Notes under the pieces: model-generated | Database searches by the model: none | What the model was told of the DNA's origin: nothing | What the model saw: only the letters and a program-made list of their open reading frames with translations | Assembly: GCA_964291625.2 (NCBI GenBank) | Contig: OZ220089.1 | Span: 4,640,001 to 4,704,000, forward strand | Source of the DNA: Candidatus Latescibacterota bacterium | Lineage (GTDB): Bacteria > Latescibacterota > UBA2968 > UBA8231 | Direction of reading: 5' to 3' | DNA: 64,000 nt | Position numbers and translations under genes: made by a program | Shown: positions 351 to 11,705 of the stretch, one piece after another | Position numbering within the stretch: the first letter of the stretch is position 1 | How the letters are laid out: each line of letters begins with the position of its first letter

Positions 351-794
351 GTGAGCGCTCAATTCCTTGGAGAGTACGAGGTCCCCGTCGACGACAAGGG
401 CCGGATCTTCCTGCCCGCCGAGTTGCGGCGGAATCTCGAGCCGGAGGCGGACGACACCTTCGTGGTCATTCGGGGCCTGGACGGGTGCCTCACCGGGCAT
501 CCACGCAACCTGTGGGCCCAGATCGCGGAGAAGATGCTCCAGCTGCCATGGAAGGAGCAGCGGGTCAGACTGTATACGCGGGCCCTCCTGTCCCAGGCGA
601 CCGAGGTGAGACTCGACCGCCAGGGGCGTGCGTCTCTTCCGAAGAAGCTCCTGGACCGGGCCGGGATCGGCGACCGTCTGGTCGTCATCGGGGCCCTGGA
701 ACATCTCGAGTTCTGGGAGCCGGAGGCTTGGCAGGGATACCTGTCCCAGGCCGAGCCGACCTTGGAGGAAGTGGCCGAGACGCTGGATCTGTGA
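351..794 (+). CDS. mraZ: division/cell-wall cluster transcriptional repressor MraZ
   Basis: 147 aa, two DxKGR/DxQGR SpoVT-AbrB motifs, GAGGAG RBS, first gene of dcw cluster. Confidence 0.97.
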   Translation: MSAQFLGEYEVPVDDKGRIFLPAELRRNLEPEADDTFVVIRGLDGCLTGHPRNLWAQIAEKMLQLPWKEQRVRLYTRALLSQATEVRLDRQGRASLPKKLLDRAGIGDRLVVIGALEHLEFWEPEAWQGYLSQAEPTLEEVAETLDL

Positions 795-1760
795 GTGGCC
801 TACCACGTGCCGGTCATGGTCGAGGAGGTCGTCACCGGGTTGGCAACGGACCCCTCAGGGGTCTATGTGGACGCAACGGCCGGGGGGGGAGGGCACGCGG
901 AGGCCCTTCTTCGGGCTCTCGGAGAGAGGGGGCACCTGCTGGTATGCGATCGGGATGCAGCGGCTGTGAACGAGGCGGGCCGCCGGCTCGATCCGTACCG
1001 CGGACGGGTGACCTTTCTCCAGTGCGCGTTTTCCTCCCTCGGCCGGTCGGTGGCCCCACTCCTGGATCGCCTGGAGCGATCCGGAGTGGACGGGGTGCTC
1101 TTCGACCTGGGGGTCAGCTCCCACCAGATCGACGAGCCTGGGCGCGGATTCAGCTATCACCAGGACGGTCCCCTGGACATGCGCATGGACCGAGGAGCCG
1201 GAGAGCCCGCGGACCAACTGCTGGCGCGGGTCCGCGAGGCCGACCTGGTGGAGTTGATCAGAAGAAATGGTGAGGAACGGCAGGCGAGGCGCATCGCGCG
1301 TTCCATCTGCCGTTCCAGGGACGAAGGCCGCATGCAGACGACGGCGCAACTGGCCCGGGCGATCGAATCGACGCGCCCGGAACGACCGACCAAGACCCTC
1401 GCACGGGTGTTCCAGGCCCTGCGAATCGCCGTCAACGACGAGCTGACCGAGCTCGAGAAGGGGCTCCGGGCGGCCGTCGATCTGCTCGCACCGGGCGGCC
1501 GGCTCGCCGTCATCGCTTACCACTCCCTGGAGGACCGGATCGTCAAGCACAGGATGGGCAGCCTGATAAGGGGCTGTGTCTGCCCGCCGGATCTGCCCGC
1601 CTGTGCGTGCGGACGCAGGCCGACGTTCCTGCGCATCGGCCCGCCCCGCCGGCCCGGCGCCGAGGAGCAGGCCGCCAATTCCCGGTCCCGGAGCGCCACC
1701 CTGCGCCTCTTCGAGAAGGTCCCTCGTGTCTCCGGAGGCACCGGAGGAGCCGTCCGGTGA
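795..1760 (+). CDS. rsmH: 16S rRNA m4C1402 methyltransferase RsmH
   Basis: HVPVM, DATAGGGGH, DLGVSS, PLDMRMD, FQALRIAVN, HSLEDR motifs. Confidence 0.98.
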   Translation: MAYHVPVMVEEVVTGLATDPSGVYVDATAGGGGHAEALLRALGERGHLLVCDRDAAAVNEAGRRLDPYRGRVTFLQCAFSSLGRSVAPLLDRLERSGVDGVLFDLGVSSHQIDEPGRGFSYHQDGPLDMRMDRGAGEPADQLLARVREADLVELIRRNGEERQARRIARSICRSRDEGRMQTTAQLARAIESTRPERPTKTLARVFQALRIAVNDELTELEKGLRAAVDLLAPGGRLAVIAYHSLEDRIVKHRMGSLIRGCVCPPDLPACACGRRPTFLRIGPPRRPGAEEQAANSRSRSATLRLFEKVPRVSGGTGGAVR

Positions 1761-2047
1761 GGGCCTGGTTTCAGGGCGACTGGGTCCGGGCGCTGACCGT
1801 GCTCGCCATGGCGGCGGCGACGACGGCCTACGTGTGGATCAAGGTGCAGATCTCGGAACTGGCGCGCGCCTCCGAGGCGGCAGGGACCAGGGCCCAGGAA
1901 CTGGTGGTGGAGAGCTCCCGCCTCGAGGCCTCCCTCGACCGGGCGAGCCGGTCGAGCCTGCTGCGACAGCGGGCCGAAGGCGAGCTCGGAATGACCTATC
2001 CGGACCCGGGAGCCACGGTCGACCTCCTGGTCAGGGCATCGCGATGA
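1757..2047 (+). CDS. ftsL: cell division protein FtsL
   Basis: 96 aa from GTG overlapping the rsmH stop; one TM helix plus coiled coil ending ELGMxYP; canonical position. Confidence 0.8.
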   Translation: MRAWFQGDWVRALTVLAMAAATTAYVWIKVQISELARASEAAGTRAQELVVESSRLEASLDRASRSSLLRQRAEGELGMTYPDPGATVDLLVRASR

Positions 2048-4098
2048 CGAGCCGCGGCTCCCACGACGACGAACGCCGCCCCTTTGCCCTCGGCCGCCAC
2101 CGCCTGCGGTGGGTCCTGCTCGCCGGAGGTCTGATCTGGTCTCTCATCGGCTTGAGGCTTGTGCAGTTGCAGGCGATCGACCACGGCACCTACCAGCTGC
2201 GCGCCCGCAACCAGCATCAGCGGCAGATCCCGCTGAGCGCACGGCGCGGGGCCATCCTCGATCGCCGGGGCCGCGAGCTGGCATTCGACGTCACCGCCGT
2301 CTCCTTCTACTGCCGGCCCGCACAGGTCCGCGATCCCGACGCGGTGATGGCCCACTTCATGCGGTTTGGCCGACGCTCCGTCGACGCGGTGTCCCAGCTG
2401 ATCAGCGGCGGGCACCCCTTCGTCTATCTCCTCCGTCAGGTCGACGGTGAGCGGCTCCACCAGGTCCGCCAGAAGACCTTCGAAGGGGTGTACGAGCAAC
2501 TGGAGGTCCGCCGTCACTATCCCTACGGCCGCTTGGCCGGACAGCTCCTGGGGTTCACCGACATCGAGAACCGGGGCAAGGAGGGGACGGAGCTGGCCTT
2601 AGACGAGATCCTGGCCGAACGGGCCGGGTCCGCCCGATCCTACGTCGACGGCCTGGGGAACGTTCTTCCCGAGCGTTCGCAGCCGACCGCCGCCCCTCGG
2701 CACGGCGCCAGCGTCCATCTGACCATCGACGCCGCCATCCAGGAAATCCTGGAGGAAGAGCTGGCCCGCACCGTGGCTGAGACCCGGGCCGAGGGAGCCC
2801 TCGGCATCATCGTCGATCCACGGTCCGGGGAGATCCTGGCCATGGCCGGCATTCCCCTCTTCGATCCGAACGATCCGGGCGGAGTCCCCGCCAACCACCG
2901 CCGGAACCGTCTGGTCACCGATCCCTTCGAGCCAGGGTCGATCATCAAGCCCATCACCATGGCGGCCGTCCTCGATGCGGACCCGAGGGTCCTCGAGAGG
3001 AAGGTCTACTGCGAGCAGGGCGCCTACGCCCTGTCCATGGGGGACGTCATCCGGGACGTCAAGCCCCACGGCTGGCTGACACCGGCCGACGTGGTCGCCC
3101 AGTCGAGCAACATCGGGGTGATCAAGCTCGCCCAGGGGCTGGATCGGTCGAGCTACTACCAGTCCCTGCGCAGCTTCGGCTTCGGGACCCGGACCGGGAT
3201 CGGCCTTCCGGCGGAGAGCGCCGGGCTGTTGCGGCACGCCCGCGACTGGTCCAACCGCTCCCTGGAGACGATCTCCATCGGCCAGGAGATCAGCGTCACC
3301 GCGGTGCAGATGGTGCAGGCCTTCGGCGCCATCGCCAACGGGGGCATGCTGATGGCGCCGAAGGTGATCCAGGAGGTCCGGGATCCCGCGGGACAGATCC
3401 TGCGGCGGGAGGAACCGAAGCCCGTGCGCCGGGTCCTCTCCTCCAGAACCGCCTCGGTCCTCAAGGGAATGTTGCGGCGGGTGGTCAGCGACGGAACGGG
3501 GCGCAACGCGGCCATCGAAGGGGTCCAGGTGGCGGGCAAGACGGGGACCGCGCAACGCGCCCTTCCGGGGGGCGGCGGCTACGCCCAGGGCGAGTACATC
3601 GCTTCCTTCATCGGCTTCCTTCCGGCTACCGGGCAACCGCGCTACCTCTGCCTGGTCTCCGTGGAGAACCCGCGGCTCGGGAAGTGGGGGGGCGTCGTGG
3701 CGGCGCCCGCCTTCCGGCGCACCATGGAACGGATCCTCGTCCTCGACGGATCGCTGGCACCCGGCGGCATCCGGCCGGGCGCCCTGGCCGACGCCGCGAC
3801 CGAGGTCCCAGGCGAGGTCATGCCCGATTTCAGGGGGCTGGACGTGCCCCGGGTCAGGGTCCAGGCCCGCCGCCGGGATCTCAACCTCCGCTTCGAGGGC
3901 TCCGGCCCGATCGTGGTCGGCCAGGAGCCGGCGCCCAGGTCGCGCCGCACGGAGGCGGACATCCTGTGCCGTCTCGGCAGCCGGGCCGACCTGCTGGCCC
4001 TGGGGCTGCCCGAGGCGCCAATGCGCCAAGCCGTGCTGGTGCGCAAGCTGCAGGGCCCGCAGCTGGTGGCCCTCGCGCCGGGGGAGGGCGGGAGGTGA
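2044..4098 (+). CDS. ftsI: class B penicillin-binding protein FtsI/PBP3 with C-terminal PASTA-like domain
   Basis: RGAILDRRG, RHYPYG, GSIIK (SxxK), SSN, KTGT; VMPDFRGL PASTA-like tail. Confidence 0.95.
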   Translation: MTSRGSHDDERRPFALGRHRLRWVLLAGGLIWSLIGLRLVQLQAIDHGTYQLRARNQHQRQIPLSARRGAILDRRGRELAFDVTAVSFYCRPAQVRDPDAVMAHFMRFGRRSVDAVSQLISGGHPFVYLLRQVDGERLHQVRQKTFEGVYEQLEVRRHYPYGRLAGQLLGFTDIENRGKEGTELALDEILAERAGSARSYVDGLGNVLPERSQPTAAPRHGASVHLTIDAAIQEILEEELARTVAETRAEGALGIIVDPRSGEILAMAGIPLFDPNDPGGVPANHRRNRLVTDPFEPGSIIKPITMAAVLDADPRVLERKVYCEQGAYALSMGDVIRDVKPHGWLTPADVVAQSSNIGVIKLAQGLDRSSYYQSLRSFGFGTRTGIGLPAESAGLLRHARDWSNRSLETISIGQEISVTAVQMVQAFGAIANGGMLMAPKVIQEVRDPAGQILRREEPKPVRRVLSSRTASVLKGMLRRVVSDGTGRNAAIEGVQVAGKTGTAQRALPGGGGYAQGEYIASFIGFLPATGQPRYLCLVSVENPRLGKWGGVVAAPAFRRTMERILVLDGSLAPGGIRPGALADAATEVPGEVMPDFRGLDVPRVRVQARRRDLNLRFEGSGPIVVGQEPAPRSRRTEADILCRLGSRADLLALGLPEAPMRQAVLVRKLQGPQLVALAPGEGGR

Positions 4099-5546
4099 AG
4101 CTTCGCGACCTGATCGGCGCGATCCGGCCCGTCCACATCGGCGGATCCCTCGACGTGGAGATCGAATCGGTCGTCTCCGATTCGCGCCGGGCCGGCCCCG
4201 GAGCCCTGTTCGTGGCCGTTCGCGGCGGACAGGAGATCGACCGCCATTGTTTCGTCGATGATGCCCTCGCCCGCGGGGCTTCGGCGGTAGTGGTCGAGGA
4301 GGACGATGAGAGTCTGCCGTCGGCACGTATCCGCGTCGACGACTGCCGCCAGGCCCTGGCAGCCCTCGCGGCCCGGCTGCACGGCTGTCCGGCCCGATCC
4401 TTCCGGTGGCGCGTCGGGGTTACCGGAACCAACGGCAAGTCGACGACTGCCCTGCTTGTGCGCCACGTCCTGGAGGCCGCAGGGGCGCGCAGCGCCTACA
4501 TCGGGACCCTGGGATTCTCCTGCGGCGAAGGCATGGAGAGCCTCGACAACACCACGCCCGAGGCCGACCGGCTGCAGGCCCTGCTCGCCAGGGCCCGTGA
4601 CGCCGGATGCGACGCTCTGGTCATGGAGGTCTCCTCCCACGGTCTGGCTCTCCGCCGCGTCGACGGGATCGACTACTCGGTGGCCGTGTTTACCAATCTC
4701 ACGCGTGACCACCTCGACTTCCACGGCACCGAGGAGGACTACCTGGCGGCCAAGGCGACTCTCTTCCGGGGTCTCGGCCAGGGAGGGGCGGCGGTGGTGA
4801 ACGCCGATGATCCCCACGCTCCGGAGGTGGCGGCAAGCACTTCGGCCCGGGTGCTCACCTACGGCGAGAGGGGAGAGGACGTACGTCTCGCCAGCTTCGA
4901 CACCCGAGCGGGCTCCACCACCCTTCTGAAGCTGGAGACGCCGGCCGGAGAGTGGTCGGTGGAGACCAGCCTGGCGGGCCGGTTCAACCGCTGCAACGTG
5001 ATGGCCGCCGTCTGCACCGGCGTCGCCCTGGGGATCGATGCCGACGCCGTGCGGTCGGGAATCGCCGCCGTGTCCCAAGTGCCGGGCCGCTTCGAACGCC
5101 TGGACGAGGGCCAGCCCTTCGAAGTCATCGTCGACTACGCTCACACGCCCGCCGGTCTCGACACGGTGCTGCGCACCGCCAGGGAGTTGACGCGGGGCCG
5201 GCTTCTTTGCCTTTTTGGCTGTGGTGGCGACCGCGACAAGGGCAAGCGGCCTCTCATGGGGCGCGTCGCCGAGGATCTGGCCGATCTCGTCTTCCTCACC
5301 TCCGACAACCCGCGGGGGGAGCCGCCCGAGGAGATCATCGATCAGATCGTCGCCGGCATGCGCGAAGCCGACTCCGCCGTGGTTTGTCCGGATCGGCGCG
5401 CCGCCATCGATGCAGCCCTGCAAGAGGCCGGCGATGGGGACGTGGTGGTGGTGGCGGGCAAGGGGGACGAACCGTACCAGATCCTGGCCGACGGACCCAC
5501 CGACTTCGACGACCGCCAGGTCGTGCGCCAGGTGCTTCGCAAGTAA
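4095..5546 (+). CDS. murE: UDP-MurNAc-Ala-Glu--meso-diaminopimelate ligase MurE
   Basis: GVTGTNGKST, NTTP, MEVSSH, DHLDFH, DYAHTP, DNPR (DAP-specific motif), AGKG. Confidence 0.97.
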   Translation: MKLRDLIGAIRPVHIGGSLDVEIESVVSDSRRAGPGALFVAVRGGQEIDRHCFVDDALARGASAVVVEEDDESLPSARIRVDDCRQALAALAARLHGCPARSFRWRVGVTGTNGKSTTALLVRHVLEAAGARSAYIGTLGFSCGEGMESLDNTTPEADRLQALLARARDAGCDALVMEVSSHGLALRRVDGIDYSVAVFTNLTRDHLDFHGTEEDYLAAKATLFRGLGQGGAAVVNADDPHAPEVAASTSARVLTYGERGEDVRLASFDTRAGSTTLLKLETPAGEWSVETSLAGRFNRCNVMAAVCTGVALGIDADAVRSGIAAVSQVPGRFERLDEGQPFEVIVDYAHTPAGLDTVLRTARELTRGRLLCLFGCGGDRDKGKRPLMGRVAEDLADLVFLTSDNPRGEPPEEIIDQIVAGMREADSAVVCPDRRAAIDAALQEAGDGDVVVVAGKGDEPYQILADGPTDFDDRQVVRQVLRK

Positions 5547-6931
5547 TGTGGCGCGACATCCACATCGAGGAGGTCCGCACCTGGACGAGGGCGGAGTGGA
5601 GAGGAGGGGAGGATCTCAGGGGGCGGCTGGCGACGGGTGTCTCCACCGACACTCGAACCCTCGAGCCCGGCGAGATCTTCGTGGCCCTGGCGGGCGAGCG
5701 CTTCGATGGCCACGACCACGTCTCCGAGGCCTTCGAGAGGGGCGCGAGTTCGGCCATCGTCGATCGCCGGCGGGTGGATGGTCTCCGGTTGACGGGGCCG
5801 GCCAGGGCGGCTTGTCTGATGGTCGTGGATTCTCCGGTGCGGGCCCTGGGCCGGATGGCCCGCCACTACCGCCGGCGATTCGACCTGCCCGTGGTCGCCA
5901 TCACCGGCTCGTCCGGGAAAACGACGGTCAAGGAGATGGTCGCCGCGGTCCTCGGACGGCGGTTCCGGGTCCTGAAGACACCGGAGAACGAGAACAGCGA
6001 GATCGGTGTGCCCCGGGCCCTGCTGAGACTGTCGGCGGATCACTCCGCCGCGGTCCTCGAGCTCGCGGCGAGGCGGGTGGGGGACATCGAGTATCTGTGC
6101 CGGGTCGTGCAGCCTACGGTCGGGGTTCTGCTGAACATCGGCGCGGCGCACGCCGGTATATTTGGATCTGTAGAGAGAGTGGCCAAGGCCAAAGGGGAGC
6201 TCCTGGACGAAATCGTGGATGAGTCTTACGTGGCTCTCGTAAACGCCGACGACTGTGTCATTGCCAGGGAGGCTAAGAGGACAAAGGGGAGACTCCTTGG
6301 CTTCGGTTGGCGGCGTGAGAGCCATTTCAGTGGGGAGGGACTCTTCCTCGACCAGGAGGGCTGCGGCCACTTCTCTCTACAGAAAACCTCCTTCGATCTC
6401 CGCATCCCGGGGCGGCACAATGCGCACAACGCACTGGCGGCCATCGCATGTGCGCGCATGTGCGGCGTGCCCCTGGGGGAAGCCAGCGCCGCCCTGGGTG
6501 GGTTCCAGCCACTGCACATGCGCTCGGCCATTCTGCAGAGACGGGGAGTGCGGGTGATCGACGACTGTTACAACGCCAACCCCGGCTCGGTCCGGGCCGC
6601 CCTGGATCTGACGGCGGAGATCCCCGTCAAAGGCCGCCGGGTGGCCGTCCTCGGGGACATGATGGAGCTCGGCGAGGCGAGCGAATCCCTTCACGAGGGA
6701 ATCGGCCGCCACGCCGCAGACCGAGTCGATGTTCTGCTGGGCACCGGTTCCCAGAGCGTGTACACGGTGCGTGCGGCCCGGGAGGCGGGGCTGGACCCGC
6801 GCCGGGCTCTTCACTTCGAGGACCGGGGCGAGCTGATCCACCATCTGGAGCAGGAGGTTTCCGAAGGCGATCTGGTTCTCGTCAAGGGCTCTCGCGGCAT
6901 GGCCCTCGAATCGGTCGTCGAGGCTTTGTAG
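5546..6931 (+). CDS. murF: UDP-MurNAc-tripeptide--D-Ala-D-Ala ligase MurF
   Basis: TDTR, GERFDGH, ITGSSGKTT, NADD, DCYNANP, LGDMMELG, KGSRG. Confidence 0.96.
   Translation: MWRDIHIEEVRTWTRAEWRGGEDLRGRLATGVSTDTRTLEPGEIFVALAGERFDGHDHVSEAFERGASSAIVDRRRVDGLRLTGPARAACLMVVDSPVRALGRMARHYRRRFDLPVVAITGSSGKTTVKEMVAAVLGRRFRVLKTPENENSEIGVPRALLRLSADHSAAVLELAARRVGDIEYLCRVVQPTVGVLLNIGAAHAGIFGSVERVAKAKGELLDEIVDESYVALVNADDCVIAREAKRTKGRLLGFGWRRESHFSGEGLFLDQEGCGHFSLQKTSFDLRIPGRHNAHNALAAIACARMCGVPLGEASAALGGFQPLHMRSAILQRRGVRVIDDCYNANPGSVRAALDLTAEIPVKGRRVAVLGDMMELGEASESLHEGIGRHAADRVDVLLGTGSQSVYTVRAAREAGLDPRRALHFEDRGELIHHLEQEVSEGDLVLVKGSRGMALESVVEAL
6167..6383 (+). ncRNA. putative long rod-like RNA structure nested in the murF coding sequence
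   Basis: Six nested stems: 6167-6184/6365-6383, 6200-6210/6348-6358, 6217-6225/6339-6347, 6231-6238/6317-6324, 6243-6253/6306-6316, 6263-6271/6293-6301; G-U pairs favour the + strand; local drop in GC at third codon positions. Confidence 0.7.
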
Positions 6932-6950
6932 ATTCCGTCTCCCGGGCCCT

Positions 6951-7065
6951 GCCGCCGTCCCCTCGGCGGCGCCGTTTGACAGGCAGTCCCCGCGCCATCC
7001 CCTGGCGCGGCCCGAGGTTGGTATCACCCTCCCCCGGCGCGTGGTTTCGCGCCCCCCTTTGTCCT
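6951..7065 (+). promoter_or_regulatory. structured murF-ftsW spacer (three hairpins, two with UCCCC loops)
   Basis: GCCGCCG-tcccct-CGGCGGC (6951-6970), CCGCGCCA-tcccc-TGGCGCGG (6990-7010), GGCGCG-tggttt-CGCGCC (7036-7053), followed by CCCCTTTGTCCT. Confidence 0.6.
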
Positions 7066-7081
7066 GACGCTGGCTCGAGTC

Positions 7082-8284
7082 ATGCCGGACGCCTCGCAAC
7101 GTGCAGCTCGCCACGTTCTCCTGATCGCCACGATGCTCGTCGGCATCGGCGTCGTCATGGTGTACAGCTCCAGCTCGGCCCTGGCGGGAGCGAAGTTCGA
7201 GAACAGCGGATTCTTCCTTCAGCGCCAGCTGATGAGGGCCGCCTTCGGCCTGATCATGATGCTCCTCCTCTCGCGGGTGCCCCTCTCTCTGTGGCGTCTG
7301 CTGGCGCGGCCCCTGCTCCTGGTGGGCATCCTGCTCCTCGTCCTGGTGCTCATCCTGGGCGAGGGCCGGGGGGCGCAGCGCTGGCTTCCCTTCGGGCTGC
7401 CCTCCCTCGCCACCCTGTCCTTCCAGCCTTCCGAGTTCGTCAAGCTCGTCCTCGTCCTCTACCTGGCAGACGTGCTGGCACGGAAGCAAAGCGACATGGG
7501 CGACTGGAGACTGGGCCTGGCCCCCCGGCTCGCGGTGATCTCTGTCGTTCAGGTCCTGATCGTCCTGCAGCCCGACCTCGGCACGGCCCTGGCCATCAGC
7601 GCCATCTCCATGGTCATCCTCTGGCTCGGCGGGGCGGGCACCTCCCACCTGGCCCTGGTGGCCTCAGGGGCCGGCTTGGTGGCGGGCTGGTCGGTGCTGT
7701 CCTCGCCCTACCAGCTCGAGCGCGTGCGGACCTTCCTCGTGGGAGCGGATCCGCAGGGGGCCGGCTTCCAGGTGGACCAGGCGCTGCTGGCTCTCGGCAG
7801 CGGGGGCTGGCTCGGCGTCGGCCTCGGCAACAGCATGCAGAAGCACTACCTGCCAGAGCCACATACCGACTTCGTCTTCGCCTTCGTCGGCGAGGAACTC
7901 GGCTTGCTCGGCGCCCTGAGCATCATCTGCCTCTTCGTGGCCCTGTCCGTCCACGGCTACCGGATCGCCACGAGGGCCGCCACCTTCCACGGATTCCTCG
8001 TGGCCTCCGGGATCACGGTGATGGTGGGGACCTACGCTCTGCTCAACGTCGCCGTGGCAACCGGCCTCATGCCGACCACGGGACTGCCCCTGCCCTTCGT
8101 CAGCTACGGCGGATCCTCGCTGCTGCTGAACCTGAGCGGCATCGGCCTTCTCGCCGCCGTGGCCCGCGAGAAGGTACCGGCCGCGTCGACGGCCTGGCGC
8201 CGGCGCGGAGAGCTGTCGCGGCCCCATCCACCAGGCACCGATGACTACTGGGTCCCACGCCCGGCACCGGCGGGCAGCCAATGA
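7082..8284 (+). CDS. ftsW: SEDS peptidoglycan polymerase FtsW
   Basis: Multi-TM; MVYSSS, QRWL, FQPSEFVK, QPDLGT, LPEPHTDF, GLPLPFVSYGGSS. Confidence 0.96.
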   Translation: MPDASQRAARHVLLIATMLVGIGVVMVYSSSSALAGAKFENSGFFLQRQLMRAAFGLIMMLLLSRVPLSLWRLLARPLLLVGILLLVLVLILGEGRGAQRWLPFGLPSLATLSFQPSEFVKLVLVLYLADVLARKQSDMGDWRLGLAPRLAVISVVQVLIVLQPDLGTALAISAISMVILWLGGAGTSHLALVASGAGLVAGWSVLSSPYQLERVRTFLVGADPQGAGFQVDQALLALGSGGWLGVGLGNSMQKHYLPEPHTDFVFAFVGEELGLLGALSIICLFVALSVHGYRIATRAATFHGFLVASGITVMVGTYALLNVAVATGLMPTTGLPLPFVSYGGSSLLLNLSGIGLLAAVAREKVPAASTAWRRRGELSRPHPPGTDDYWVPRPAPAGSQ

Positions 8285-9687
8285 GAATGCCTCTTCGGGA
8301 CCGCGGAGCCCGTGCCGGAGAACCTCTCGGGGCGGGGGTGAAGCGAGTGCACATGGTCGGCATAGGCGGCGCCGGCATGGAGGCCCTGGCACGGCTCCTG
8401 GTCGATCTCGGCTACCGGGTGAGCGGTTCCGACGCGGCCGCTGGCCCCGGGGTCACCGACCTCCAGCAGTCGGGTGTTCCCGTGCGCGTCGGCCACCACG
8501 CATCGCAGGTCGAGGGCGCCGATCTCCTCGTGTACTCCTCGGCCGTGGACGAGGAGAACTGCGAGCGCCGGGCCGCGGCGCGTCTGGGGATCGAGCAGTG
8601 GTCGAGGGCCCGCGCCCTGGGCGCCGTGAGCCGCACCTGCTATACGGTGGCCGTGGCCGGCACTCACGGCAAGACGACGACGGCTTCCCTGATTGTCGGT
8701 GCCCTGCGCTGCGCGGGGCACGAGCCCCGGGTCGCCATCGGCGGCTGGATGGGGGGGCGTCCGCAACCGACGGCCCGGTCCGGAGACCTGCTGGTGGTCG
8801 AGGCGGACGAATATCGCCGCGCCTTCCACGAACTCGAGCCCTGGATCTCGGTGGTCACCAACATCGAGATGGAGCACGTCGACTGCTTTGACGGCCGCGA
8901 CGACCTCGTCGAGGCCTTCGGCGTCTTCCTCTCCCGGTGCCGGCGCGGGGGCGGCGTCGCCGTCAATGGCGACGACGAGCTTTGCCGGGCGGCGGCTGTG
9001 CGGTCGCGGGCGGACGCGTCCCTGACCTTCGGTTTCGGACCCTCCTGCCAGGTGCGCGCCGAAGCCCTGGCGCCGACGGGCACGGGATCGGCCTTCGCCG
9101 TCCACCTGGACGGAGAGCGTCGGCCGGTCGACCTGGGCGTCCCGGGGAGGCATAATGTCAGCAACGCCCTGGCGGCCATCGCCGCGACCCGCCTGATGGG
9201 CCTGGCCTGGGAGCCGGTCTCCTCGGCCCTGCGCCGCTTCACCGGGGTGGATCGGCGCTACCAGTCCCGGGGGGAGGTGGAGGGGGTGGCCATCGTCGAC
9301 GACTACGCGCACCATCCGACGGAGGTCTCGGCCACGGTGGCGACGGCAGCGGCGACCGGGAGAAGGGTGACCGCCGTTTTTCAGCCCCACACCTACTCCC
9401 GTACGCGCCACTTCCACGAGGCGTTTGCCGAGTCCCTGCTCAACGCCCACAGGGTGTGCGTGACCTCCGTCTACGCGGCCCGGGAAAGCCCGGATCTGGG
9501 GGACGAGGGGGATGTCATCGTCGACGATCTGCGGCGCCTGGGACACCATCGGGCGCGCTTCGTGGCCGAGGCCGACCTCGCCCTGTCCCGCTCCCTGGCG
9601 GAGTGCGCCGCCGGTGACCTTCTCCTGGTGATGGGGGCCGGGGACATCGGCGACCACCTCGGGGACCTTCTGGAGGGTACGGCCTGA
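8281..9687 (+). CDS. murC: UDP-N-acetylmuramate--L-alanine ligase MurC (true start may be GTG 8338)
   Basis: GIGGAGM, AGTHGKTTT, EADE, DDYAHHPTE, FQPH, MGAGDI. Confidence 0.96.
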   Translation: MRMPLRDRGARAGEPLGAGVKRVHMVGIGGAGMEALARLLVDLGYRVSGSDAAAGPGVTDLQQSGVPVRVGHHASQVEGADLLVYSSAVDEENCERRAAARLGIEQWSRARALGAVSRTCYTVAVAGTHGKTTTASLIVGALRCAGHEPRVAIGGWMGGRPQPTARSGDLLVVEADEYRRAFHELEPWISVVTNIEMEHVDCFDGRDDLVEAFGVFLSRCRRGGGVAVNGDDELCRAAAVRSRADASLTFGFGPSCQVRAEALAPTGTGSAFAVHLDGERRPVDLGVPGRHNVSNALAAIAATRLMGLAWEPVSSALRRFTGVDRRYQSRGEVEGVAIVDDYAHHPTEVSATVATAAATGRRVTAVFQPHTYSRTRHFHEAFAESLLNAHRVCVTSVYAARESPDLGDEGDVIVDDLRRLGHHRARFVAEADLALSRSLAECAAGDLLLVMGAGDIGDHLGDLLEGTA

Positions 9688-9688
9688 G

Positions 9689-10558
9689 ATGACGCCGCGG
9701 AAGAAGGCCGGGCAGGCCGGAGTGCCCATGGCCTCCCCGGCCGGGGCTCCGGGACACCGGTGGCGGCGGCCTGTGCTGGCGGCGGGCCTGGCGGCGGTGA
9801 CGGCTCTGACTCTCGGCATCCAGGGAGCGCAGTCGACGCCGATGGAGTCTCCCTTCCGCGTCGACATCCTCGAGGTGCGCGGCCTCCGCCTGCTGCACGG
9901 GGACATGATTCTCGCTGCCAGCGGCATCGCGGCGGGGGCGGAACTCTTCGACATCGACCCGGACCGGCTGGCCGAGCGTCTCAGGCGCCTGGTGTGGGTG
10001 CGAGAGGCGCGGGTGGTGCGCAGGCCTCCGGACCGCCTGATCGTCCATCTCGAGGAACGCCGCCGGACCGCCTGGGTCGATTGGCGCGGCGTCCAGTACG
10101 GCCTCGACCCGGAAGGGGTCCTGCTGCCGCCCGAGCGACTGCCCGCGGAGAGCATCGCGGATCTCGATCTGCCGGTGTTGCGGGTACGCTCCCTGGTCGC
10201 CGGGGGGGACACGGTGAGGCCGGGGAAGGTAGTGACCGACAGCACCGCCCTCCGATTGCTGGGGTGGCTGGGTGAGGCCTCGGAGCAGGCTCCCGACCTG
10301 GCCTCGGAGATCTCCCAGCTCACCGACTTCGATGGTCTCAGCCTGGGGATGCGGCTGGTGGCCGACGGGCTCGAGGTCCGGGTCCCTCCAGACCGAGTGG
10401 AGGAGCGGATGGCCGTTCTGCGGGAAGTCCTCAAGCGCGTCTACCGGGAGGTTCCAAACCCCTCCTACGTCGATCTGAGGTTTGCGGGCCAGGCCGTCGT
10501 CGGCTCGCACAAAGAGGCAAGGAACCCAATGGGCGGTGCCCACCACAGGAAGAGATGA
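9689..10558 (+). CDS. ftsQ: cell division protein FtsQ/DivIB
   Basis: Single TM, POTRA-like segment (WVREARVVRRPPDRLIVHLEER), C-terminal YVDLRF. Confidence 0.9.
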   Translation: MTPRKKAGQAGVPMASPAGAPGHRWRRPVLAAGLAAVTALTLGIQGAQSTPMESPFRVDILEVRGLRLLHGDMILAASGIAAGAELFDIDPDRLAERLRRLVWVREARVVRRPPDRLIVHLEERRRTAWVDWRGVQYGLDPEGVLLPPERLPAESIADLDLPVLRVRSLVAGGDTVRPGKVVTDSTALRLLGWLGEASEQAPDLASEISQLTDFDGLSLGMRLVADGLEVRVPPDRVEERMAVLREVLKRVYREVPNPSYVDLRFAGQAVVGSHKEARNPMGGAHHRKR

Positions 10559-10595
10559 CGAGAGCAGAAACCAACAACCGAAGGAGAGCAGGAAC

Positions 10596-11705
10596 ATGAC
10601 TTTCGAGATCATCGACTTCGAGCGCTGCGCGAACATCAAGGTCGTCGGTGTCGGAGGCGCCGGCGGCAACGCCATCAACCGGATGGTGGCCTCGGGTATG
10701 CGCGGCGTGGAATTCGTCGCCGTCAACACGGACAGCCAGGACCTCGAGGCGTCGGCGGCGGATGTCGGCATCTGCATCGGCGAGAGCGTCACTCGAGGCC
10801 TGGGTGCCGGCGCCAAACCAGAGATCGGACGCGCCTCGATCGAAGAGGACCGCGACAGGGTCGCCGAGAGGCTGCAGGACACCGACCTGGTGTTCATCAC
10901 GGCGGGGATGGGAGGGGGTACGGGGACCGGGGCGGCGCCGATAGCCGCCCAGATCGCCAAGGAACTGGGCTCCCTCACCGTGGGAATCGTGACCGAGCCC
11001 TTCCACTTCGAGGGTCTTCCCCGGATGCGCAATGCCCAGGCGGGCATCTCGGAGTTGCAGGAGCACGTGGACACGCTGATCGTGATCAAGAACGAGCGCC
11101 TCCTGTCGATCGTCTCTCGGGACACCACTCTGGAGGAGGCCTTCAACCAGGCCGACGAAGTGCTGTTGCAGGCCACCCGGGGCATCGCCGATCTGATCAC
11201 CATCCCCGGCATGATCAACCTCGACTTCAACGATGTGAGGACGGTGATCACCGAAGGCGGCGACGCGATCATCGCCGTCGGCGCCCACCAGGGGGAGAAC
11301 CGGGCCGTGGAGGCGGCCAAGAAAGCGATCAAGAGCCCCCTCATAGGGGAGATCTCCATCAACGGCGCCCGCGGAGCGCTGATCAACATCACCGCCGGCT
11401 CGAGCCTCACCCTCTTCGAGGCCAACGAAGCGGCGCAGATCATCCAGGAGGCCGCGGGCAGCGAGGCCAACATCATCTTCGGGACGGTGATCGACCCGGC
11501 CATCGAGGACGAGATGCGGGTCACCGTCATCGCCACCGGCTTCCACCTCAACCAGCGGCCCACGCACTTCGATCCCGAGCCGGCCGCACCCCAGGCCCGC
11601 CCGCAGCGCGGCCAGGCCCCTCAGCCGGAGGCGGAGGCGGGGGCGGGGGCTTCCGAGTGGGGCGACCTCGACTACCCGGCCGTCCTGAGGCGTCGAATGG
11701 CCTGA
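10596..11705 (+). CDS. ftsZ: cell division protein FtsZ
   Basis: GVGGAGGNA, GMGGGTGTG tubulin signature, NLDFND, C-terminal DLDYPAVLR; AAGGAG RBS. Confidence 0.99.
   Translation: MTFEIIDFERCANIKVVGVGGAGGNAINRMVASGMRGVEFVAVNTDSQDLEASAADVGICIGESVTRGLGAGAKPEIGRASIEEDRDRVAERLQDTDLVFITAGMGGGTGTGAAPIAAQIAKELGSLTVGIVTEPFHFEGLPRMRNAQAGISELQEHVDTLIVIKNERLLSIVSRDTTLEEAFNQADEVLLQATRGIADLITIPGMINLDFNDVRTVITEGGDAIIAVGAHQGENRAVEAAKKAIKSPLIGEISINGARGALINITAGSSLTLFEANEAAQIIQEAAGSEANIIFGTVIDPAIEDEMRVTVIATGFHLNQRPTHFDPEPAAPQARPQRGQAPQPEAEAGAGASEWGDLDYPAVLRRRMA

Follow-up and report, generated by a model that had tools for sequence, protein, structure and literature searches.

A conserved hairpin RNA inside murF of Candidatus Latescibacterota and its possible contact with the ftsW leader

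In the RNAIII system of Staphylococcus aureus, with rot, spa and coa, and in small RNAs of the RsaE/RoxS type, C-rich loops (UCCC), sometimes several of them, pair with G-rich mRNA sites (GGGA) at or near ribosome binding sites. In the coat-replicase 'Min Jou' interaction of MS2 an upstream coding sequence pairs with a downstream initiation region, and ribosome passage alters access. The present work deals with a long hairpin RNA encoded inside the cell-wall gene murF, and with its possible pairing to the leader of ftsW, in a 64,000-nucleotide (nt) stretch of the genome of an uncultured sponge bacterium, Candidatus Latescibacterota (contig OZ220089.1, positions 4,640,001 to 4,704,000 of the forward strand; called the window below, with all coordinates counted from its first letter). 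For ftsW a riboregulator is known from Rhodobacter sphaeroides. UpsM is described as an abundant small RNA that a ribonuclease processes from the dcw operon transcript (PMC5089854, PMC8266604), and the processed 130-nt form as one that base-pairs with the ftsW and mraY mRNAs and lowers their levels (PMC8266604). It derives from the 5' untranslated region upstream of mraZ, has a Rho-independent terminator and is Hfq-dependent, and its binding site lies in the middle of the ftsW message (PMC5089854, PMC8266604).

The hairpin lies within the coding sequence of murF (5549..6931, + strand), the gene of UDP-MurNAc-pentapeptide synthetase, which was assigned by the Pfam families Mur_ligase, Mur_ligase_M and Mur_ligase_C in the open reading frame 4952-6931; the likely start of the protein (MWRDIH...) comes after the murE stop codon. 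It is a single long imperfect hairpin of about 217 nt (6167..6383, +), recognized by its fold, by covariation and by synonymous constraint. The segment 6167-6383 folds with a minimum free energy of -113.2 kcal/mol and a z-score of -6.36, and 0/200 shuffled sequences were as stable. The base is closed by helix 1 of the consensus, formed by the inverted repeat I11 (12 nt, exact), in which TCTGTAGAGAGA (6167..6178, +) pairs with TCTCTCTACAGA (6372..6383, +). At the tip the fold contains an apical hairpin (6263..6301, +), made of a 9-bp stem with one G-U pair (6263-6271 with 6293-6301) and the 21-nt purine-rich loop GCTAAGAGGACAAAGGGGAGA (6272..6292, +).

Conservation of the hairpin was studied in the ftsW loci of 30 relatives from the same genus, family and class, which were oriented and codon-aligned; the hairpin alignment comprised 29 sequences. 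Codon identity, calculated among sequences with the majority amino acid, was 0.8-0.92 over approximately 6150-6385 as compared with about 0.5-0.6 elsewhere in murF. The RNAalifold consensus had 49 pairs in the 29 relatives, and standard pairs occupied 98.0% of the 1,421 cells, against 44-50% when the partners were slid. Eleven pairs were changed on both sides, whereas shuffled alignments gave 4.4 +/- 1.1 such compensatory changes and 0/500 of them scored as high; in helix 7 three pairs were changed on both sides, from A-U to G-C and to C-G. The sense strand folded better than the antisense strand in 29/29 sequences (means -98.0 and -77.4 kcal/mol). Conserved pairing with compensatory change beyond the controls, the general mark of a structured cis- or trans-acting RNA element, is thus present, and the hairpin is a real, conserved RNA element. 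A search of the segment 5400-7400 on both strands with the Rfam 15 covariance models (cmscan, E up to 1) gave 0 matches, including to 6S RNA, Y RNA, self-cleaving ribozymes and the mraW motif, and a literature search found neither an RNA internal to murF nor any riboregulator of the Latescibacterota described. The hairpin, which is the novel part of the present findings, has apparently not been described so far.

The most conserved letters of the hairpin are unpaired. The motif CAAAGGGGAG is invariant and occurs twice: copy 1 (6190..6199, +; codons AAA GGG GAG) lies in a 9-nt bulge, with no variation and no consensus pairing in alignment columns 40-47, and copy 2 (6282..6291, +; codons AAG GGG AGA), likewise invariant and unpaired, lies in the apical loop. 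A third G-rich block, GTGGGGAGGGAC (6330..6341, +), is partly paired and is invariant in columns 179-188. In the loop AGG ACA AAG GGG AGA is identical in 21/23 loci of the family, and AAG GGG AGR CTY CT is present in 29/29 loci, though MurF is just 47-60% identical in the more distant ones. The loop codons are rare codons for a genome of 70% G+C. The two copies of CAAAGGGGAG stand in different codon phases, which points to selection on the nucleotides.

Coding explanations for this constraint were rejected. An overlapping protein-coding gene is not compatible with the stops, since the five other frames each contain at least one in nearly all 29 sequences. For a programmed -1 frameshift, A AAG GGG (6283-6289) fits in family f1, whereas GTT AAG GGG stands in its place in family f2, the -1 frame stops after 11 codons, and the copy at 6190 is in the other codon phase. 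Internal initiation after the Shine-Dalgarno-like motifs would lack a conserved start, the TTG at 6297 being CTG or CTC in relatives.

The element is confined to part of the phylum. A 25-base pattern across both motifs was found once per genome in 115/168 genomes of the phylum, and the reversed control pattern in 0. All carriers belong to a single class of Candidatus Latescibacterota and, within it, to four families (f1, 67/75; f2, 23/31; f3, 3/3; f4, 21/22), and ten other families gave 0/36. In a scan of named genomes the carriers were labelled Candidatus Latescibacterota, some of them filed under Gemmatimonadota or Handelsmanbacteria; three odd matches correspond to about the chance expectation for the looser pattern used there. 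Among five genomes of other classes examined by hand the element was not found in 4, and one, of family f9, retains part of it.

The initial annotation had pointed out that the apical loop holds a 12-mer with an exact reverse complement in front of ftsW, and that the ftsW start has no obvious Shine-Dalgarno sequence; both readings proved exact. The murF-side 12-mer AGGACAAAGGGG (6278..6289, +), located by direct reading and by a repeat finder (pair I12), is complementary in 12/12 positions to the leader-side 12-mer CCCCTTTGTCCT (7054..7065, +), 764 nt away, and is read in frame as AGG ACA AAG GGG (R T K G). The ftsW gene (7082..8284, +; FTSW_RODA_SPOVE family, Pfam E 1.1e-97) has its ATG, the first start codon of the frame, 16 nt past the leader 12-mer, and GAG is the only Shine-Dalgarno-like core in these last 16 nt. 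The murF-ftsW spacer, i.e. the ftsW leader (6932..7081, +), is rich in C motifs on the sense strand, as read here and in the relatives. Just past the murF stop it can form the hairpin GCCGCCG-TCCCCT-CGGCGGC (6951..6970, +), whose stem is conserved in the genus, with compensatory change, and whose loop TCCCCT is, as read from the sequence, complementary to AGGGGA of the invariant motif. A second C-rich loop is carried by GCGCCA-TCCCC-TGGCGC (6992..7008, +), and the hairpin GGCGCG-TGGTTT-CGCGCC (7036..7053, +) directly precedes the leader 12-mer. Both arms are predicted to be accessible: the opening cost is 0.07 kcal/mol for the loop and 0.62 kcal/mol for the leader, which has an unpaired probability of 0.81. 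Predicted duplex energies are -21.3 kcal/mol for the 12-mer, -11.8 kcal/mol for its first 8 nt (the conserved core described below) and -17.3 kcal/mol for the bulge copy with the leader.

The reading that we prefer, and hold tentatively, is a lineage-limited RNA-RNA contact between the G-rich motif or motifs of the hairpin and the C-rich motif or motifs of the leader, a contact that would affect ftsW initiation or the processing of the mRNA and would probably operate for the most part in trans. The hairpin displays the invariant CAAAGGGGAG twice, in the bulge and in the apical loop, and the leader 12-mer is the species version of a C-rich spacer motif (CCCCUUUG in the genus, CUCCCCUU in some other lineages) complementary to it. 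The two motifs would pair within the operon transcript or, more probably, through contact of an accumulated hairpin fragment with the ftsW mRNA. Pairing could then modulate either nuclease cleavage or the access of the 30S subunit to an ftsW start with a poor Shine-Dalgarno sequence, and the murF message would thereby be linked to ftsW output. The actual pairing, the direction of its effect and the choice between cis and trans are inferred. Coincidence is nearly as likely as this pairing. In that case there would be no functional contact: the hairpin would be kept for processing or stability, or for protein or 30S binding, the leader would be C/U-rich for reasons of its own (Shine-Dalgarno-independent initiation, terminator-like hairpins), and the 12-mer would be a chance match favoured by the meeting of purine-rich loops with pyrimidine-rich leaders.

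By itself the 12-mer match is ordinary and constitutes weak evidence. The window has a G+C content of 70.7% and contains 30 distinct exact inverted repeats of at least 12 nt no more than 1 kilobase (kb) apart (1,530 12-mer pairs in all), as expected if the match were accidental; one further such repeat, I11, lies within the same 2.5 kb as I12. For this particular pair of places, on the other hand, the 10 12-mers of the loop and the 139 of the spacer, the expectation calculated from the genome's own pair rate at 500-1000 nt is 0.0009, or 0.00024 when restricted to 12-mers with no more than 7 G+C, which speaks against coincidence, although both values leave out the reader's freedom to choose any interesting pair. 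The pair was in fact singled out after the fact. Because the choice was free, the decision has to rest on relatives. The coding regions of murF and ftsW also share another inverted repeat, 6477-6492 with 7375-7390 (16 nt at 94%, 13 nt exact).

Within the genus the conservation of the leader core is in favour of a contact. The genus consists of two subclades that are about 70% identical in FtsW and whose spacers barely align, and the core CCCCTTTG (7054-7061), an exact complement of the invariant motif, is kept in 9/10 genomes, at -29 to -34 from the ATG and unpaired in the local consensus fold. The predicted loop-spacer duplex is always placed at the core site.

For a class-wide test, 128 spacers were reduced to 72 clusters, and each genome's own 17-nt loop seed was compared with the last 115 nt before ftsW, the reversed seed serving as control. 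Complements of at least 8 nt were found in 14 clusters (reversed, 5) and of at least 9 nt in 10 (reversed, 0), counts that overstate independence inasmuch as the clusters are related to each other; for the 65 clusters outside the genus the corresponding numbers were 8 (reversed, 5) and 5 (reversed, 0). Thus the leader complement exceeds the reversed controls at 9 nt and above, but is patchy. In some other lineages the complement is 9-10 nt long in a shifted register, TCTCCCCTT(T) opposite (A)AAGGGGAGA. The word CTCCCCTT occurs in 9/72 clusters, where it ties as the commonest spacer 8-mer, compared with 1 for its reversal and 0.81 for shuffles (maximum 5 in 300 shuffles); the opposite orientation, AAGGGGAG, occurs in 0. 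Its density is 0.72/kb in the spacers, 0.009/kb on the + strand of the rest of the loci and 0.017/kb in the genome. CCCC loops were present in 23/124 spacer hairpins and GGGG loops in 1, while genome-wide CCCC loops made up 375/19,970. The leaders do not simply copy the end of 16S ribosomal RNA, whose tail is the standard GGATCACCTCCTTTCT: the anti-Shine-Dalgarno-like CCTCCTT is found in 2/72 clusters, so mimicry of 16S was rejected, and what the leaders match is the complement of the hairpin motif. Excess over reversal at 9 nt, the frequency of CTCCCCTT and the genus core all weigh against coincidence.

Among the spacer clusters (G)CTCCCACCG is as frequent as CTCCCCTT. In a genus with spacers of about 51 nt (L038-L131) the leaders share a hairpin, GCTCG-CTCCCAC-CGAGC, followed by an (A/T)TCCCCTA block.

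A number of results weigh against the proposed contact and in favour of coincidence. In the genus the last four letters of the leader 12-mer vary (TACT, CCCT, TGCC, TGCT, CGTT and others); L002 has TACT, L003 CCCT and L004 TGCC at 93-98% MurF identity, and in L005 the core itself is changed to TCCTCCTG. In the four nearest relatives the complement is shortened from 12 nt to 9, 8, 9 and 6 nt with the murF side unchanged, i.e. the 12-nt extent is lost without compensation. The murF side is in fact invariant across the class whatever the leader, which makes covariation of the two 12-mers impossible. The loop-spacer duplex beat 200 dinucleotide shuffles outright in just 2/10 genomes of the genus, the shuffle fraction being 0.015-0.03 in four others and 0.1-0.36 in the remaining four. 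Outside the genus most lineages show no complement; the excess of complements of at least 8 nt is the small one given above, and the mean duplex energy is -12.87 kcal/mol against -12.78 for the reversed seed (Wilcoxon p 0.93). The position of the motif before ftsW ranges from -9 to -83. Complements and reversals were counted 35 and 42 times for 6-mers, 21 and 18 times for 7-mers and 13 and 5 times for 8-mers; since the shorter complements are no commoner than reversals, the signal is to a large extent the general C-richness of the leaders. Just 12/72 clusters have a Shine-Dalgarno-like core between -18 and -4 of ftsW, so that pyrimidine-rich, Shine-Dalgarno-poor leaders are a general trait.

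Family f9 belongs on the same side of the balance. It retains the first motif and the apical hairpin, not the outer helices, and has mraY with a strong Shine-Dalgarno sequence between murF and ftsW, which means that the loop motif exists there without an adjoining ftsW. From this arrangement it follows that the loop is not conserved because of the ftsW leader, and that the loop motif is older than the juxtaposition of murF and ftsW. In locus L154 of this family ATAAAGGGGAGACTCCTTGG and its closing stem are kept inside murF (2154-2175), and a single CTCCCCTT lies inside mraY (position 3331). Judged from sequence, the f9 form may be an ancestral or a reduced version of the element.

The long-range pairing proposed in the initial annotation therefore survives in part. 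Both arms lie in conserved RNA that is predicted to be single-stranded, and a core or a shifted complement recurs in other genomes; the compensatory covariation between the two 12-mers that had been suggested as a check did not appear, the leader changing and the murF side never varying, and most of the relatives that keep the hairpin lack the complementarity, an outcome that had been named beforehand as speaking against the proposal. The full 12-nt extent is species-specific and partly luck. The loop is conserved for reasons beyond ftsW, and pairing cannot explain the conservation of the hairpin; pairing would be an add-on in some lineages, not the reason for the hairpin's existence.

Whether a contact would act in cis or in trans is addressed by RNA libraries. 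The RNA evidence consists of assembled contigs only, and contigs cannot rank the parts of a gene. The murF-ftsW stretch turns up in sponge and marine metagenomes and in some RNA libraries. In run X16 a 108-nt RNA-library contig (6179..6286, +) matched with 0 mismatches at a depth of 20,871, a value that depends on one strongly enriched run and could be inflated by polymerase chain reaction duplicates or by a core summed over several species, which again tells against our preferred reading. Contig 6260-6661 of the same run had a depth of 2,562, and the neighbouring contigs had depths of 21 (5875-6208) and 8 (6722-7326). A second study contributed run X17, in which a contig that begins at 6178 had a depth of 29.6 as compared with about 8 beside it. 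These depths hint at an accumulation of RNA from the hairpin region far beyond that of the mRNA on either side. Other parts of the stretch had no contig cover, e.g. 5585-5818 and 7340-7690 in X16 and everything outside 6065-6397 in X18. In X16 the Illumina adapter stands directly before 6179 and behind 6286 and 6287, and one end of the deep contig thus falls inside the 12-mer AGGACAAAGGGG. The adapter is oriented as it is on a contig from murE, which, if the library was stranded, suggests sense RNA. Such ends may have arisen where a very stable hairpin is cleaved or fragmented, in its single-stranded loop and at its base; the 108-nt piece alone was rejected as a stable fold (z +0.85). For the RNA end near 6179 the word TATATTTG at 6157-6164 was considered as a Bacteroidetes -7 box and rejected, as it is not conserved and lies 15 nt from that end.

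The same contigs bear on a pseudoknot in cis, the form in which the interaction had originally been conceived: within one transcript loop and leader would pair over approximately 770 nt, and ribosomes translating murF would melt the hairpin, switch the pairing and couple murF translation to ftsW initiation. The genes are suitably placed, murF being directly upstream of ftsW in 29/30 relatives (the remaining locus is cut short) and adjoining it on the same strand, with the spacer present, in 29/30 and in 101/119 related loci. RNA contigs bridge the spacer (X16, 6722-7326; X2, 6985-8002), and the predicted accessibility of both arms would serve a pseudoknot as well. We nevertheless regard this version as improbable. 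It shares the weaknesses of the preferred reading, and the deep contig ends at 6286/6287, inside the 12-mer, with depth dropping from 20,871 to 8 before the spacer, which, within what contigs can tell, suggests that the leader is missing from most of the hairpin RNA. A hairpin under translation cannot present its loop, and a 12-bp helix formed from a 21-nt loop would be sterically tight. The contigs hint that much hairpin RNA exists apart from the leader, which would make any pairing largely a matter of trans contacts rather than of a 770-nt pseudoknot.

An extended trans version would make the hairpin an abundant Latescibacterota-specific regulatory RNA, cut from the coding sequence, whose twin CAAAGGGGAG seeds act on C-rich, Shine-Dalgarno-poor leaders of ftsW and of other genes; we consider this unlikely. 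In the genome 94 sites, the hairpin itself included, are complementary to the loop over at least 10 nt, and beyond the top match there was no obvious excess at gene starts, a comparison made without gene calls and hence not a proper test. The longest complement outside murF, 15 nt perfectly complementary to AAGAGGACAAAGGGG, lies at 4095110-4095124 (+) of contig 1 (locus L150, 811-825) and overlaps the predicted Shine-Dalgarno sequence and TTG start of a 172-residue protein with no Pfam family, whose N-terminus, read from the translation with no prediction tool, resembles a signal peptide. The site is matched in 14/15 positions in one close relative and absent in another, and the gene was found in 3/26 genomes searched. 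The hairpin RNA may act in trans on this site, or the match may be chance.

Two families of regulators were considered in connection with a trans-acting RNA. A sponge of the CsrB/RsmZ type was rejected: AGGA and GGGGA motifs are present, but CsrA (PF02599) was not found in the genome. Hfq (PF17209) was not found either in the window's genome, which is 95% complete, and absence from an incomplete genome is not proof. Hairpins with UCCCC loops do not constitute a genome-wide family, as there were 58 with TCCCC loops and 77 with GGGGA loops among 19,970 hairpins. In the same genome two kinds of perfect hairpin with a 6-bp stem, one with the loop GAAGCT/CGAAGCTG (about 70 copies) and one with TGAACG/GTGAACGC (about 45), are far commoner than those with other loops of that length, which suggests two dispersed repeat families.

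The surrounding cluster has the order mraZ-rsmH-ftsI-murE-murF-ftsW-murC-ftsQ-ftsZ (351-11705, with mraZ at 351-794). It is of the dcw type without mraY, murD, murG and ftsA at their usual places; two genes of the MraY family lie elsewhere (contig 2, about 717 kb; contig 1, about 4,155 kb). Elsewhere in the phylum, in other classes, murF and ftsW are still separated by one gene, which in family f9 was read as mraY. The region 251-310 before mraZ holds a sigma-70-like promoter, TTGACA-18 nt-TATACT (251-280), and after it, just upstream of the gene, GTGG-type repeats (GTGGGG, GGTGG, GGTG, GTGGAG) that resemble MraZ boxes.

The motif could finally be thought of at the level of DNA. An 8-10-bp word, CAAAGGGGAG and its complement, would then be the site of a regulator, with two auxiliary sites in murF and a third where the ftsW promoter would lie; the sites might cooperate by looping. 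Operators within coding regions exist, e.g. lac O2. The word does occur three times in 900 bp (6190, 6282 and, inverted, 7054) and is kept in two codon phases. An operator would, however, leave the 49 conserved pairs and their compensatory changes unexplained, as well as the better sense-strand fold in 29/29 sequences and the strict opposite orientation in the spacers (9 clusters with CTCCCCTT, 0 with AAGGGGAG). Moreover, a consensus scan of 6100-7200 found no sigma-70-like or other internal or ftsW promoter and no terminator, and a TTGACA at 6976-6981 was rejected as a promoter since it is not kept in the nearest relatives. An MraZ operator was rejected as well, the MraZ-box-like repeats upstream of mraZ being GTGG-type, another word. 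A DNA operator thus appears highly improbable.

The hairpin is notable regardless of pairing. About 220 nt of a housekeeping gene are frozen at synonymous sites throughout a class in which the protein has diverged to about 50% identity, with covarying pairing and possibly strong accumulation of the RNA, and searches for structured RNAs that are limited to intergenic regions miss such elements. If the preferred contact between hairpin and leader is true, an essential gene of peptidoglycan precursor synthesis carries an in-frame structured RNA that contacts the leader of the septal polymerase gene, a compact way of balancing precursor supply and septum synthesis, in a phylum without cultured members and without known riboregulators. 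Should the extended trans version hold, a gene for cell-wall precursor synthesis would at the same time give rise to an RNA that regulates division and envelope genes.

Compared with the described systems, the locus would share with the Min Jou interaction an upstream coding-region partner for the initiation region of a downstream cistron. There the partner is ordinary coding sequence melted by ribosomes, whereas here it would be a loop in a hairpin that is conserved independently and accumulates. With RNAIII and RsaE it would share the pairing of short G-rich and C-rich single strands, here AAGGGGAG in loop and bulge with CCCCUUUG and the UCCCC(U) hairpin loops of the spacer. The roles are exchanged, with G-rich loops on the regulator-like RNA and C-rich ones on the target leader, and both reside in one operon. 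UpsM differs in more respects: the RNA studied here lies inside the murF coding sequence (6167-6383) and is a single long hairpin with its candidate site in the ftsW leader, there is no sequence likeness and no Rfam match, no Hfq was found in the genome, and the phylum is a different one. An origin in the 5' untranslated region upstream of mraZ and a Rho-independent terminator (no terminator-like site was found in 6100-7200), both features of UpsM, do not apply to it, nor, on the evidence of a genome that is 95% complete, does Hfq dependence. As to the pairing of UpsM with ftsW mRNA and the change in its level, the counterpart here is a complementarity that is present and predicted to be accessible, conserved only as the 8-nt core in the genus. 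UpsM/StsR is nonetheless the closest system, being likewise a dcw-derived RNA with ftsW as partner, here a candidate one.

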